Part shown: positions 11,873 to 32,000 of the stretch, piece after piece | Numbering within the stretch: the first letter of the stretch is position 1 | Layout: each line of letters starts with the position of its first letter | NCBI RefSeq assembly: GCF_000020025.1 | Contig: NC_010628.1 | Coordinates: 4,170,001 to 4,202,000, forward strand | Length of the DNA: 32,000 nt | Reading direction: 5' to 3' | Origin: Nostoc punctiforme PCC 73102 | GTDB taxonomy: Bacteria; Cyanobacteriota; Cyanobacteriia; Cyanobacteriales; Nostocaceae | Made by a program: the position numbers and the translations under genes | Notes under the pieces: model-generated | Told to the model about the DNA's origin: nothing | The model's input: the letters and a program-made list of their open reading frames with translations, nothing else | Database searches by the model: none

Positions 11873-13702
11873 ATGACTCTGAGTTATTTAAGAGATAGTG
11901 AATATAGCGTCTCAACGTTAGTTGATGTACTCATTTATCGAGCAAAGCACCAGCCAGAACAAAAAGCTTATACATTTTTAAAAAATGGAGAACAAGAAGC
12001 AGATAGTTTGACTTATCAAGAACTTCATCTGCGGTCTAGAGCGATCGCTGGTTCTCTGCAAGCTCTTAATCTTGTTGGAGAACGGGCGCTACTCTTTTAT
12101 CAACCTGGATTAGATTTTATTGCTGCCTTCTTTGGATGTTTATATGCTGGAGTAGTAGCCGTTCCCGCCTATCCACCAAGAAAAAATCAAAATCTGAGTA
12201 GACTACAGGCAATTACAGCTGATGCCCAAGCTCAAATAGTACTCACTACAACCACATTACTGAATAACCGTGAGCTTTTTGCTGAACAGGAGTTAGAACT
12301 AGGACAGTTGCAATGGTTAACAACCGATGTGTTAACTAATGAACTCACACAATCATGGCAGCAACTAAAACTTGAAGAGAATTCCTTAGCTTTCTTACAA
12401 TACACTTCTGGTTCTACTGGGAATCCCAAAGGTGTAATGGTCAGTCATGGCAACCTTTTACATAATTCTCGCGCGATCGCCCAATGTTTTGGTCATTCAT
12501 CCAACAGCAAAGGTTTGATTTGGTTACCTCCTTACCATGATATGGGATTGATTGGTGGTATTTTACAACCTCTTTACGCTGGGTTTCCCGTGGTATTGAT
12601 GTCACCAGTAGACTTTTTGCAAAAACCCATACGTTGGTTACAAGCAATTTCTCGCTACAAAGCTACTACTAGTGGTGGTCCGAACTTTGCATATGAGCTA
12701 TGCCTGCGTAAGGCCACACCTGAACATTTAGAAAGTCTAGACTTAAGTAGTTGGGATCTTGCTTTTACGGGTGCCGAACCCATTCGTGCTCAAACGTTGG
12801 AGCAATTCACCAAAACTTTTGCACCCTGCGGTTTTAATCAAAAAGCATTCTATCCATGCTATGGTATGGCGGAAACAACTCTGATTGTTTCTGGAGGAGA
12901 AAAAACAGAATTACCAATCCTTTGTAAAGTTGATCCTGCAGCACTAGAACAAAATCGAGTAGTCAACGTTATAGATGAACAGATTGATGCTAGAACCTTG
13001 GTCGGGTGTGGGCAAAGCTGTCAAGATATGAGCATTGTTATTGTCAATCCCGAGTCTTTAAGTGTTTGTTCGGAGAAACAAATTGGCGAAATCTGGATAT
13101 CAGGTTCAAGTGTGACTCAAGGCTACTGGAATCAAGCTGAACTCACAGAGAAAAACTTCTATGCTTATGCAGATATGGGAGAAGGTCCATTTTTGCGTAC
13201 AGGAGATTTGGGATTTTTACAAGATGATGAACTGTTTGTCACAGGTCGGATTAAAGATATCATCATTATTCGTGGGCAAAACCATTATCCTCAAGATATT
13301 GAACTCACTGTAGAGAAGAGTCATCCTGCTTTGAGAGTAGGTTGTTTAGCTGCCTTCGCGGTAGAATCCAAAGGTTCTGAAAGATTGGTTGTTGTTGCTG
13401 AAGTTGAAAGAACTTACTTAAAGAAATTAAACATTCAAGAAGTCGTCAATAAGATTAGACAAACAGTAGTAACAGAACATGGGTTAGATGTATTTGCTGT
13501 GGTATTGGTGAAGACTGGAAGTATTCCAAAAACTTCTAGTGGTAAAATTCGCCGTTACGTCTGTCGAACCGCATTTTTGTCAGGCAGCTTGGATGTTGTC
13601 CAAGACTGGAGTGAAAGTCCAGAAAGTACTAAAAAATATATCAATTTACAGGCAGAAATTGAAACTATTTTGCATAAATTGCAAATTGAGACACAAGGGT
13701 AG
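11873..13702 (+). CDS. Fatty acyl-AMP ligase (FAAL) for starter-unit activation
   Basis: It carries the ANL superfamily core YTSGSTGNPKGV (about 12400-12435), plus GYWN, TGDLG and SSGKIRR. The FAAL-type N-terminus reads TLVDVLIYRAKHQPEQKAYTFL...LTYQELHLRSRAIAG. A discrete ACP follows. The last roughly 15-20 codons appear to come from the adjacent IS remnant. Confidence 0.9.
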   Translation: MTLSYLRDSEYSVSTLVDVLIYRAKHQPEQKAYTFLKNGEQEADSLTYQELHLRSRAIAGSLQALNLVGERALLFYQPGLDFIAAFFGCLYAGVVAVPAYPPRKNQNLSRLQAITADAQAQIVLTTTTLLNNRELFAEQELELGQLQWLTTDVLTNELTQSWQQLKLEENSLAFLQYTSGSTGNPKGVMVSHGNLLHNSRAIAQCFGHSSNSKGLIWLPPYHDMGLIGGILQPLYAGFPVVLMSPVDFLQKPIRWLQAISRYKATTSGGPNFAYELCLRKATPEHLESLDLSSWDLAFTGAEPIRAQTLEQFTKTFAPCGFNQKAFYPCYGMAETTLIVSGGEKTELPILCKVDPAALEQNRVVNVIDEQIDARTLVGCGQSCQDMSIVIVNPESLSVCSEKQIGEIWISGSSVTQGYWNQAELTEKNFYAYADMGEGPFLRTGDLGFLQDDELFVTGRIKDIIIIRGQNHYPQDIELTVEKSHPALRVGCLAAFAVESKGSERLVVVAEVERTYLKKLNIQEVVNKIRQTVVTEHGLDVFAVVLVKTGSIPKTSSGKIRRYVCRTAFLSGSLDVVQDWSESPESTKKYINLQAEIETILHKLQIETQG

Positions 13703-14200
13703 AACTGAGAGTGATAAAAGCTTACGTAGCGAATATCAACAAGAAATTATTATGTTATCTGTGGAGGATTTACTCTTCGTAGATGAAGTGGGACTGAACT
13801 TAGGAATGGCTCGCCAATTCGGATGGGCGCTATCAGAACAAAGAGCTTATGGGACTCGCCCTTAACAACAAGGTCAAAATGTCAGCCTAAATCAATACAG
13901 TTCAGTTAAGAATTTCTTTCTTCTCTTCGCGTTCTTTGCATTCTTCTCTGCAAGACGCTTCGCGAAAGCGGTTCGTTAAAAAAGTTGACTTTGACAAAGA
14001 GTTTTAGCCTTAACTGAACTGTATTGCAGCCTAAATGGTGCAATTGCATTACGGAGTGTTGTAACTTCAATTGTGCCATTGTCTGAGCAACAGATGGCTT
14101 AACTTTTAAAGCATTTACTCAAGCGCAATTACTACCCAACCTCTGGTCTTGATGCTGTGTGGTCAATAACTATACTCACGTCAATACATTTATTAAAAAA
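13660..14200 (+). pseudogene. Remnant of an IS630-like (DDE_3) transposase, truncated at both ends, frameshifted and split by a MITE
   Basis: The fragments read ...LRSEYQQEIIMLSVEDLLFVDEVGLNLGMARQFGWALSEQRAYGTRP*QQGQNVSL | NGAIALRSVV... and then ...TDGLTFKAFTQAQLLPNLWS*CCVVNNYTH in another frame. This matches the conserved order of IS630-family transposases. The start and end coordinates are approximate. Confidence 0.7.
13893..14026. mobile_element. 134-bp MITE with perfect 18-bp terminal inverted repeats and a 10-bp target-site duplication
   Basis: The TIRs are CAATACAGTTCAGTTAAG (13893-13910) and CTTAACTGAACTGTATTG (14009-14026). The direct repeat CAGCCTAAAT flanks both sides (13883-13892 and 14027-14036). 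Excision restores the transposase frame ...QNVSLNGAIALR.... The interior contains the dispersed repeat core (13943-13966). Confidence 0.8.
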
Positions 14201-14253
14201 TATAATTTCATGTAATTGATAAAATATTCTTACACCTATTTCAAAAAAAACAT

Positions 14254-30200: not shown

Positions 30201-30242
30201 TTTATATTTTAAAAAATTAGATAATTAAGGATTTTAGCAATC

Positions 30243-30407
30243 ATGAATATCACTGAACTTGTAGATAACTTGACTCAAAAAGGTGTAAAATTATGGGTTG
30301 ATAATGATAAACTTCGCATTCATTCACCCAAAGGAATATTAACACCAGAAATCCAAAGCGAACTGGCAAAACGCAAAGTCGAAATTCTCAGTTTACTGCA
30401 AAGAAAA
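30243..30407 (+). other. N-terminal beta-hairpin (TubC_N-like) docking domain
   Basis: MNITELVDNLTQKGVKLWVDNDKLRIHSPKGILTPEIQSELAKRKVEILSLLQRK fits the pattern GVxLWxxxxxLRxxxPxGxLTPExxxxLxxxKxExxxLL of TubC-type docking domains. Confidence 0.75.
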
Positions 30408-32000
30408 AATAACGATTCTGAATGTCCTACAGATAATGGTCAATCCCTAAGCTTACAAACTATCGGACGTTTAATTGGCGGTTTTTCCCAAAAAACCGAT
30501 ACAGATTTTAAGCCGCCTGTTACCAACCCCGAAGTTATGGCGCAAAAGCTGAAAATTACTTTTCGACCCTTGCCCAAGGGATATCAAGAAGCAGCAATTA
30601 TTAAATTTCGAGAACAATTAACGCAGAAACTCCAAGATTGTGGCGTGCAGATTGCAGATTGGGAATCAGCCACCAAAGAAATGAACTATGAAATCACCAT
30701 TCCCCTAACTAATCTGCGAAAGACAATCAAAACTAGGGTGGTGAAAGCCGATGTTAGTGCCATTATCGATGTTGAAAGAAAACCGAATTTACTCAGTAAG
30801 CTGAAGATTTGTATTGCAGAAAATCTCTATAATTTCTATTCTCAATTTATTTGGAAACATCAAAAACAGTCTGTCTCCAAAATTGCTCAATTTATCAGTT
30901 GGGCTGAAGAGAATATTCAACCAGTAGAAGACCCTACCAATACCCAAATTATTGTATTGACAGACTTGGATGAAGAATTTGTTAGCTCCAATCTCCCCTA
31001 TCAACAAAAAATCCCTATTGGCGTAAATACTCTAGTCAGAACATTTTCTGAGATTGTCATTGGTGTGTCTTCTCATCAGATTTCTATATTAAATATGAAT
31101 CTTTCCGATTCTACATTTCCTGTGGAATCAATCGATGATTTTGTTTTGAAATCTTTAACACCGAAAATATACGTACCAATTTTACCATTGCCGTTGAGCA
31201 GATTTACCATTAGTCAATATGACCCAAATCAATCCCCCTATGCAGCCCAACTGGTAAAATTTGGTCAAGAATTAGCAGCAACAGAATTGCTGCCTTCTGG
31301 ATTCAAAATTGACGATGTAATTACCAGAAAATCCCATCGAGATATTGTAGACTGGATGGCAAATGGGAGAACAGGTGTATCTTATGGTTTTGTCGCTTAT
31401 GCAGAACCTCCACAATATGTCGGGGCTGGAGAAATCTCAGCTAGTGAATGGGAGAACTTATCACCCATCCCTGGATTTAGCAACGATGAACTGCGACTAA
31501 ATCAAATTGGTAGGAGATATTTAAAAACCAAAATTGGTAATGAATATCGATACAAACAAATACCAGATATTTGGGTTGTCAGTTCTCGTTCGGGTTCCAA
31601 AAAAACAGACCTAAATTTGGAAACCGATATTCTCAGGATTGGCTTGCAAGATAGGCTGTTGTTGCAATTACCAGAAGCAATTAACCCAAGCGCTGGGGAT
31701 ATTAAACCATCATACGACTTGTACGTGATGGTGGCGATCGCCCTCTCTGCTTCCCTATATGCGCCAGAACTCATTGAAAATGGTGCGCCAATGGTTCATT
31801 TCCACGGATACCCATCTCTTGATTGGTTTAAGTCCGAGAAAGAATATTACACAGGTGTCCACAATCCCTCAGTTCCCTGTGGAACTTATGAATCAGGAGT
31901 CTTTAACTTCCTGGGGATATACGATTTAGTTCAACAACATGGCAGTGATATTGCCTTAGCTAGTCTCATTGAACCAGATCACGGTACAAATATCATCGGC
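30243..32000 (+). CDS. Partial ORF of at least 586 aa, open to the window end: TubC-N-type docking domain followed by an unassigned region
   Basis: ATG at 30243, 42 nt after the PKS3 stop, with TAAGGA upstream. I translated all 586 codons by hand and found no stop. It is absent from the ORF track, presumably because no stop codon falls within the window. After residue 55 I recognise no ANL, condensation (HHxxxDG), TE (GxSxG), FkbH or PLP motif. Confidence 0.85.
   Translation, partial: MNITELVDNLTQKGVKLWVDNDKLRIHSPKGILTPEIQSELAKRKVEILSLLQRKNNDSECPTDNGQSLSLQTIGRLIGGFSQKTDTDFKPPVTNPEVMAQKLKITFRPLPKGYQEAAIIKFREQLTQKLQDCGVQIADWESATKEMNYEITIPLTNLRKTIKTRVVKADVSAIIDVERKPNLLSKLKICIAENLYNFYSQFIWKHQKQSVSKIAQFISWAEENIQPVEDPTNTQIIVLTDLDEEFVSSNLPYQQKIPIGVNTLVRTFSEIVIGVSSHQISILNMNLSDSTFPVESIDDFVLKSLTPKIYVPILPLPLSRFTISQYDPNQSPYAAQLVKFGQELAATELLPSGFKIDDVITRKSHRDIVDWMANGRTGVSYGFVAYAEPPQYVGAGEISASEWENLSPIPGFSNDELRLNQIGRRYLKTKIGNEYRYKQIPDIWVVSSRSGSKKTDLNLETDILRIGLQDRLLLQLPEAINPSAGDIKPSYDLYVMVAIALSASLYAPELIENGAPMVHFHGYPSLDWFKSEKEYYTGVHNPSVPCGTYESGVFNFLGIYDLVQQHGSDIALASLIEPDHGTNIIG

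Follow-up and report, generated by a model that had tools for sequence, protein, structure and literature searches.

The ngl (pks3) locus of Nostoc punctiforme: identification of the cluster and a proposed chain release by a non-elongating ketosynthase module and an aldolase-like docking protein

The stretch of DNA studied here, 32,000 nucleotides in length and referred to below as the window, was initially read from its letters as an orphan biosynthetic assembly line. Our analysis identifies it, with a probability of about 95%, as the ngl (pks3) locus of Nostoc punctiforme ATCC 29133 / PCC 73102, that is, as a cluster which is already known and neither an orphan nor a new pathway. The window comprises the left two-thirds of ngl, namely nglR, nglA to nglF and most of nglG. 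No difference from the published cluster was detected; the window stops inside nglG, and nglH to nglQ lie outside.

The pks3 cluster was named ngl by Glasser et al. (Nat Chem 2024), who picked the strain for the absence of the type III polyketide synthase CylI, and extends from Npun_R3355 to Npun_F3373 over 36,029 bp (PMC10849952). Its products, the nostochlorosides, are chlorinated glycolipids published in 2024, in which 6-O-methylgulose is attached to C1 of a C21 chain with a 1,2-diol oxygen pattern, a hydroxyl group at C6 and chlorine at C12 (PMC10849952). Their production was demonstrated with deletion mutants and nuclear magnetic resonance (NMR), and deletion of nglA-nglO abolished the compounds (PMC10849952). 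Deuterium feeding defined palmitate as the starter unit, in which one hydrogen at C7 is replaced by chlorine, and purified NglO, a homologue of CylK, was found to oligomerise the monomer by displacement of chloride by a hydroxyl group, which yields an ether (PMC10849952). The cluster, its products and the CylK-type etherification are therefore not a new discovery. The remaining value lies in the chemistry of nglF and nglG, i.e. in a release without a thioesterase or reductase domain and in the origin of the C21 chain and its vicinal diol. New in the present study are a structural model of NglG with an invariant histidine triad, the conservation of a non-elongating ketosynthase (KS0) trait from Nostoc to Pleurocapsa, and a narrowed core of genes.

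Identity of the locus

The assignment is based on primer matches, residue numbering, gene order and a series of runs in the Sequence Read Archive (SRA). The primers were taken from the Methods of the published study and had been designed on genomic DNA of ATCC 29133 (PMC10849952). Four of them lie inside the window, at 9365-9384, 9975-9994 (TTTGCTCTACTAGTGACAGG), 10870-10890 and 11842-11871, each of them free of mismatches (0 of 91 nt). The last site belongs to the deletion-junction primer and ends one base 5′ of the ATG of the fatty acyl-AMP ligase (FAAL) gene at 11873. Two exact primer sites thus delimit the upstream homology arm of the published Δngl deletion construct (10870..11871), and the positions of the primers in the window agree with the deletion as published. 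Two further primers from the nglO side match L001, a contig described below, exactly. Several of the published primers show one or two mismatches in relatives at 95-96% identity, and in the ~95%-identical relatives L004 and L005 (the latter from Nostoc sp. C117) there are either mismatches or no match within two substitutions. Among the identity tests run, we regard the primer match as the decisive one. One observation concerns the primer TTTGCTCTACTAGTGACAGG itself, which was published as binding nglO and maps 5′ of nglR, with its partner mapping 3′ of nglO in L006, an 8.33-Mb JGI contig. Because the two sites lie upstream of nglR and downstream of nglO, this pair seems to flank the whole Δngl deletion.

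Gene order and strand fit the ngl locus tags one for one. A thioesterase (TE) gene in reverse orientation is followed by genes for a FAAL, an acyl carrier protein (ACP), a halogenase, two polyketide synthases (PKS), a KS*-ACP protein and a docking-domain protein, as in the published cluster, so that the TE corresponds to Npun_R3355, the halogenase to Npun_F3358 and the docking-domain protein to Npun_F3362. In the published assignments, the neighbouring thioesterase is NglR, FAAL and ACP are joined by the halogenase NglC (Npun_F3358), and NglD and NglE are PKSs; NglF has Gln in place of His at residue 344 (C-Q-H), and NglG (Npun_F3362) is a hypothetical protein in which a docking domain and perhaps an aldolase domain were recognised (PMC10849952). 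In the window, the codon for this glutamine of NglF (CAA, 28908-28910) gives the same residue number. Two further tags fit in the extensions of the window, where an epimerase corresponds to NglK, which is assigned as an epimerase (PMC10849952), and a CylK homologue to F3370. The CylK homologue of L006 and L007 carries R84, E428 and Y460 in the residue numbering of NglO (PMC10849952). Furthermore, the TE and FtsX genes delimit a stretch of ~36,035 bp, the far end of which was read from the relative L006; the published length is 36,029 bp.

The exact NglF protein is encoded on three Logan contigs (L001-L003) from the runs SRR8435126, SRR8435129 and SRR8435152, and L001 is 100% identical to the window from 23944 to 32000. 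The runs SRR8435111 and SRR8435116, as well as a third one printed as 'SR8435121', are RNA-seq data of N. punctiforme PCC 73102 (PMC13283749). Since the runs of L001-L003 share this number series, ngl is probably transcribed, in the form of long transcripts, if the assignment by run series holds; this agrees with the published remark which places ngl among the clusters with the highest expression in this strain (PMC10849952).

Several points weigh against the identification. A genome scan with NglE as query matched only Desmonostoc geniculatum and Nostoc sp. C117, and N. punctiforme proteins were absent from the matches in three protein searches and one cluster-member look-up; the source genome may be absent from the collections searched. 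In addition, SRR8435126, SRR8435129 and SRR8435152 were placed in the N. punctiforme RNA-seq project by their neighbouring run numbers, and nglO-nglQ were observed solely in a 96%-identical relative (L006/L007) and not in the source itself. The window could accordingly represent an ngl-like cluster of another, closely related Nostoc, the product of which may differ, e.g. in the sugar head group. Besides the outcome of the genome scan, such a view can draw on the existence of relatives at 95-96% nucleotide identity (C117, Desmonostoc geniculatum and the 8.33-Mb JGI contig) and on the Desmonostoc locus (L010), which has another tailoring region behind the same PKS core. We consider it very improbable, as precisely these relatives show one or two mismatches in several primers, compared with 0 of 91 nt in the window. 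Moreover, the 100%-identical L001 stems from a run series that includes RNA-seq of N. punctiforme PCC 73102, and its tailoring genes are those expected from the lettering of ngl, in which the epimerase is NglK.

The further view of the locus as an uncharacterised FAAL-ACP-diiron-PKS pathway without known product, as in the sequence-only reading, has already been refuted. It is understandable in that the local copies of Pfam and NCBIfam recognise neither NglC nor the body of NglG, and the locus looks unassigned from sequence alone. However, the nostochlorosides have been assigned to ngl on the basis of gene deletion, isotope feeding, NMR and an assay of NglO in vitro (PMC10849952), and the window matches the ngl locus in Gln344 of NglF and in the primer sites. 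The cluster linked to these compounds in 2024 constitutes a syntenic match with an assigned product, and the claimed novelty has to be given up. The earlier statement that a type III PKS, an HMG-CoA synthase cassette and a CylK homologue are all missing from the window itself is correct; the type III PKS (CylI) is absent from L001 and L006 as well, and the HMG-CoA synthase β-branching cassette from the extensions of the window. For the CylK-like enzyme, which had been reported as missing within the window only, the sequence beyond the window decides to the contrary. NglO lies ~11 kb past the end of the window (PMC10849952), and in L006 its gene was seen directly, coding for a CylK homologue of 861 aa with RTX repeats at its end and a match of E 1e-131 to the crystal structures of CylK; a protein of this length is encoded in L007 as well.

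Chain initiation and elongation by NglA to NglE

All genes described in the sequence-only reading are present on the plus strand as intact open reading frames (ORFs), according to the ORF listing and Pfam scans. The first three form a trio of FAAL, ACP and diiron enzyme which follows the initiation logic of CylA/B/C, and the pathway behind this trio differs from cylindrocyclophane biosynthesis, both as claimed.

NglA (11873..13702, +) matches Pfam AMP-binding with E 3e-70 and has a DIP2-like C-terminal domain. Its best NCBIfam matches are models of fatty-acid--AMP ligases, all of them under the curated cut-offs, and nglA is annotated as a FAAL (PMC10849952). NglB (14423..14740, +) is a free-standing ACP (Pfam PP-binding, E 9e-16) with the phosphopantetheine site GLDSS. 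NglC (Npun_F3358; 14899..16269, +; 456 aa) represents the CylC-type dimetal-carboxylate halogenase. The local Pfam copy, which is without the model PF28091, gave only a weak AurF match for it (E 2.6e-5), and homologues with 55-92% identity carry a precomputed PF28091 'CylC-like' assignment. Hundreds of homologues of NglC are found in cyanobacteria; no solved structure was found for it by sequence search. Across 58 homologues, E103, E137xxH140, E273 and E304xxH307, which include two ExxH motifs, are invariant, and by analogy with AurF-type diiron enzymes we take these residues to be the ligands of two metal ions. As judged from the domains, NglA would adenylate palmitate and load it onto NglB, where NglC would chlorinate the ACP-bound chain. 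On feeding of palmitic-7,7-d2 acid one deuterium is lost, which is consistent with chlorination at this position (PMC10849952).

The two elongating PKSs consist of ketosynthase (KS), acyltransferase (AT), dehydratase (DH), enoylreductase (ER), ketoreductase (KR) and ACP domains, assigned by Pfam. NglD (16429..21183, +) has the order KS-AT-KR-ACP (KS 16429-17553, AT 18034-18984, KR 19996-20532, ACP 20839-21033), and NglE (21201..27833, +) the order KS-AT-DH-ER-KR-ACP (KS 21324-22454, AT 22932-23882, DH 24039-24905, ER 25689-26591, KR 26643-27176, ACP 27480-27680). The catalytic triad C-H-H is intact in both KS domains. Both ATs carry the malonyl-type motifs GHSVG and HAFH, in line with the two malonyl-specific modules noted earlier. 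In NglE, the DH shows HxxxDxxxxP with its histidine present and the ER shows the nucleotide-binding motif GGVG. NglD begins at a GTG right at its KS domain (16411-16429), without an N-terminal docking helix; the frame is open for just 18 nt upstream, and C117 is arranged alike.

Based on these domains, NglD would add one malonate unit, the β-hydroxyl group of which ends as the C6 hydroxyl of the product, and NglE would add a second unit with full reduction, leading to a C20 acyl chain. The arithmetic of the modules (16+2+2 = C20) places the hydroxyl group and the chlorine one carbon below their positions in the product (C6 and C12). Consequently, the release step has to supply the extra carbon as well as the vicinal diol.

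The cluster also includes a gene which the sequence-only reading had overlooked. NglR (Npun_R3355; 10429..11274, -) is a type II, i.e. editing, thioesterase encoded divergently from the other genes (Pfam Thioesterase, E 4e-42), and its nearest solved structures are RifR-type TEII enzymes (E 1e-41).

NglF, NglG and the release of the chain

NglF (27879..30200, +) consists of a KS0 (27981-29114), a linker and an ACP (29958-30155), recognised as the Pfam KS, linker and PP-binding domains; Acyl_transf_1 was not found in it. Its triad reads C209-Q344-H384 instead of C-H-H, with Q344 in the motif YIEVQGTSTS, and the protein terminates in the tail ...ETEAFEI. We compared this last module in five loci, all of which keep the active-site cysteine. 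In the window, in C117 (L005) and in Desmonostoc (L010), the first catalytic histidine is replaced by Gln and the AT is absent. Nostoc NIES-4103 (L013; 6748-9735) likewise shows Gln, Pleurocapsa PCC 7327 (L012; 6918-9950) has Asn, and in both an AT remnant is left, in which GYGVG stands for GHSVG and a large internal part is deleted. The C-terminal tail is acidic and terminates in FEI in 5/5 loci. Since the retained cysteine, the change of His to Gln or Asn and the dead or deleted AT are conserved across distant homologous clusters, the comparison points to a maintained, non-elongating transfer module and not to decay. The designation of NglF as a dead module is thus appropriate with respect to elongation and misleading where it implies degeneration. 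The remnants in Pleurocapsa and NIES-4103 look like intermediate stages of the AT loss that is complete in ngl.

KS0 modules are best known from trans-AT PKSs. NglF resembles them in the retained cysteine, the replaced first catalytic histidine and a chain that would be passed on without extension, but it is part of a cis-AT assembly line with a dead or deleted AT and would serve a docked release enzyme. A similar KS mutation has been cited as turning a KS into a transthiolase (PMC10849952).

NglG (Npun_F3362; 30246..32000, +) is cut by the end of the window, which covers 584 of its 620 aa; the full gene was read in L001. A β-hairpin docking domain occupies its N-terminus (30249-30401; TubC_N, E 1e-18) and is matched by such domains in the PDB profile search and in Foldseek as well. 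In the remaining part of the protein, Pfam, NCBIfam and the PDB profile search recognised nothing, and the earlier description of one enzyme without a family at the sequence level is valid apart from the docking domain. For a 97%-identical homologue (P0001), an AlphaFold2 model based on 91 sequences had a pLDDT of 85 and a pTM of 0.83. Searched against the PDB with Foldseek, the C-terminal part of the model matched the class II aldolase fold (E 3e-5 to 3e-3, probability 1.0) with RhuA, FucA, AraD, YgbL and pyruvic oxime dioxygenase. The residues H518 and H520 (31797-31805) and H579 (31980-31982) are invariant in 91 homologues and form an HxH...H pattern in which 59 residues separate the second from the third histidine, a spacing like that of FucA; they are candidate metal ligands. 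The model therefore suggests a class II aldolase-like C-terminal domain and strengthens the published hint from SWISS-MODEL (PMC10849952). In contrast to the members of the class II aldolase/adducin family, NglG has this domain in one chain with a PKS docking domain and a region of ~350 aa without structural match.

Behind the window, L001 continues from nglG with genes for a short-chain dehydrogenase/reductase (SDR, NglH), a FAD_binding_4/ALO oxidase, a second SDR, a NAD-dependent epimerase-family protein, a GMC oxidoreductase, a GT4 glycosyltransferase and a methyltransferase. Past the methyltransferase gene, L006, which is 96% identical to the window over the overlap, carries the gene for the CylK homologue, a HlyD-like gene and an FtsX-type gene. 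The locus of Desmonostoc geniculatum HA4340-LM1 (L010, 7570-15172) shares the PKS core at 95% nucleotide identity. Its nglG homologue is followed by genes for an SDR, a glycosyltransferase (GT), two methyltransferases and a CylK-RTX protein, and it possesses no FAD oxidase, second SDR, epimerase or GMC gene; the first of its methyltransferases is only 65% identical to that of ngl. This tailoring block points to cassette exchange and would predict another sugar head group. Orthologues of NglH are found in all four compared loci, at 95, 92, 65 and 52% identity. Because a 95%-identical sister cluster does without the four other redox genes, the conserved core can be narrowed to the KS0-ACP NglF, NglG, the SDR NglH and a glycosyltransferase, as far as the gene contents of these four loci indicate. 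NglI to NglL look like enzymes of sugar tailoring, their nearest solved relatives being aldonolactone/alditol oxidoreductases and FAD sugar dehydrogenases. The idea that NglI and NglJ act as a DprE1/DprE2-like pair, which makes gulose by oxidation and subsequent reduction, was weakly supported and is speculation, with NglI being much closer to L-galactonolactone dehydrogenase/alditol oxidase (E 1e-40) than to DprE1 (E 1e-14).

NglG was already proposed as the terminator (PMC10849952). Here, we tentatively suggest, at odds slightly below even, that NglF, NglG and NglH represent a widespread type of termination in which a KS0-ACP hands the chain to a docked enzyme with aldolase fold, one carbon is gained and the 1,2-diol is subsequently formed. 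In this scheme, NglF, having the triad C-Q-H and no AT, would not elongate the chain but move it to its own ACP. NglG would dock on the tail of NglF and release the chain with one net extra carbon by metal-enolate chemistry of the class II aldolase type. Its substrate is presumably the ACP thioester, and a metal-bound enolate donor would lead to a hydroxymethyl ketone or a 2-hydroxyaldehyde. The resulting carbonyl group would be reduced to the 1,2-diol by NglH, followed by glycosylation by NglM and methylation by NglN. Weighing against this scheme, the steps assigned to NglF and NglG are hypotheses, with an enolate as the candidate one-carbon donor; Pfam Aldolase_II found no sequence match in NglG, and the Foldseek alignments reach target-normalised TM scores of 0.43-0.58 at 9-12% identity.

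The count of carbons is satisfied equally well (16+2+2+2-1 = 21) if NglF performs a hidden elongation. Its ACP would then be malonylated in trans, a true extension would give a C22 β-ketoacyl-ACP, and NglG would remove C1 to leave C21. It could do so by hydrolysis with subsequent decarboxylation or by cleaving the β-keto enolate oxidatively, as in OtnC/YgbL and pyruvic oxime dioxygenase. Decarboxylase and dioxygenase members of the fold are indeed among the Foldseek matches (YgbL 6vop, pyruvic oxime dioxygenase 8il8, 2z7b), and in homologous clusters this module still contains the remnant of an AT. Nevertheless, we regard this course as unlikely. The first catalytic histidine, which is needed for decarboxylation of malonyl, has been replaced by Gln or Asn in all family members examined; GYGVG stands for GHSVG in the AT remnants, which also show a large internal deletion, and in ngl the AT is wholly gone. 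The transthiolase precedent cited in PMC10849952 likewise speaks against an elongating KS.

Still somewhat less probable appears a reductive release, in which a NAD(P)H-dependent enzyme such as NglK frees a C20 aldehyde and NglG acts as a true aldolase with a donor of the dihydroxyacetone phosphate (DHAP) type, a later C-C cleavage leaving the C21 1,2-diol. Addition of DHAP to aldehydes is the usual reaction of class II aldolases, NglK matches NAD_binding_4 (E 4e-12) besides Epimerase in Pfam, and in Pleurocapsa an extended SDR follows directly after the NglG homologue. However, both the docking domain of NglG and the conserved KS0-ACP with its tail argue for an ACP-bound thioester as substrate. 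The Desmonostoc operon, moreover, is without NglK; the only candidate there is an epimerase/NAD_binding_4 gene of 356 aa, which lies on the opposite strand. Of the extended-SDR genes tested in L010 and L012, none gave a blastp match to NglK at E <= 1e-5. Of the courses considered, the transfer from NglF to NglG with gain of one carbon is the one we prefer.

Surroundings of the cluster and related systems

Nucleotide similarity to L004 and L005 begins at about position 10131 of the window, which marks the left edge of the cluster. An RTX protein of 1693 aa is encoded upstream (4211-9292, -), with RTX repeats nearly throughout (36 Pfam stretches and 49 GxGxD-type motifs found by regular expression). 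As the similarity to L004/L005 starts only at ~10131, this gene is, by this comparison, outside the conserved cluster. It was considered as the missing CylK homologue and rejected, since it consists of RTX repeats only, with no match to CylK structures and no propeller. Further upstream, fragments of mobile elements occupy 2006-3589 (-), where one ORF contains DUF6444, zf-IS66 and a truncated IS66 DDE domain and an adjoining ORF helix-turn-helix domains only, which suggests a disrupted insertion sequence near the cluster.

Inside the operon, the spacer between nglA and nglB is unusually long (720 bp, 13703-14422). An ORF at 13539-13865 shows a faint resemblance to the transposase domain DDE_3 (E 0.088), most of the spacer is common to C117 and not to Desmonostoc, and a transposase remnant may be present here. 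The spacer also harbors an insertion of 134 bp (13893-14026) with perfect 18-bp terminal inverted repeats (CAATACAGTTCAGTTAAG), flanked by the duplicated CAGCCTAAAT and missing at the corresponding position of Nostoc sp. C117 and Desmonostoc, which looks like a miniature transposable element.

A CylC-containing relative was found in L008 (1-21371; GCA_000331305.1, KB217478.1), the halogenase of which is 76% identical. Upstream of its FAAL gene are genes for a TE, an unknown protein of 577 aa, and HlyD and FtsX proteins. The gene calls leave a gap from the halogenase to a KR-ACP protein (11371-13082), and the first PKS of this locus may be disrupted.

Among the characterised systems, the cylindrocyclophane (cyl) pathway shares with ngl the trio of FAAL, ACP and CylC-type halogenase, which chlorinates an ACP-bound fatty acyl chain, as well as a CylK-family enzyme that later uses the alkyl chloride as an electrophile. 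In contrast to cyl, ngl is devoid of the type III PKS (CylI) and the HMG-CoA synthase cassette, and its product is a glycolipid. Its CylK homologue bears an RTX tail and uses hydroxyl nucleophiles to form ethers, in place of C-C bonds to resorcinols. The CylC clusters with type I PKSs (columbamide, chlorosphaerolactylate, microginin and puwainaphycin; Eusebio et al. 2021, PMC8406957) also have FAAL and ACP genes 5′ of the CylC homologue and type I PKS modules downstream, whereas release in ngl would proceed through the KS0-ACP and NglG, followed by glycosylation. The heterocyst glycolipids (hgl) are likewise long-chain polyol glycolipids of Nostoc, and a superficial resemblance has been noted (PMC10849952). 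Their chains are longer, with C26 or C28, and carry glucose in place of the 6-O-methylgulose of ngl (PMC10849952); the ngl lipid differs in addition by its odd C21 chain, the vicinal diol linkage and the chlorine. Because hundreds of homologues exist in cyanobacteria, solving the release step in ngl would explain the whole family of these glycolipid clusters.

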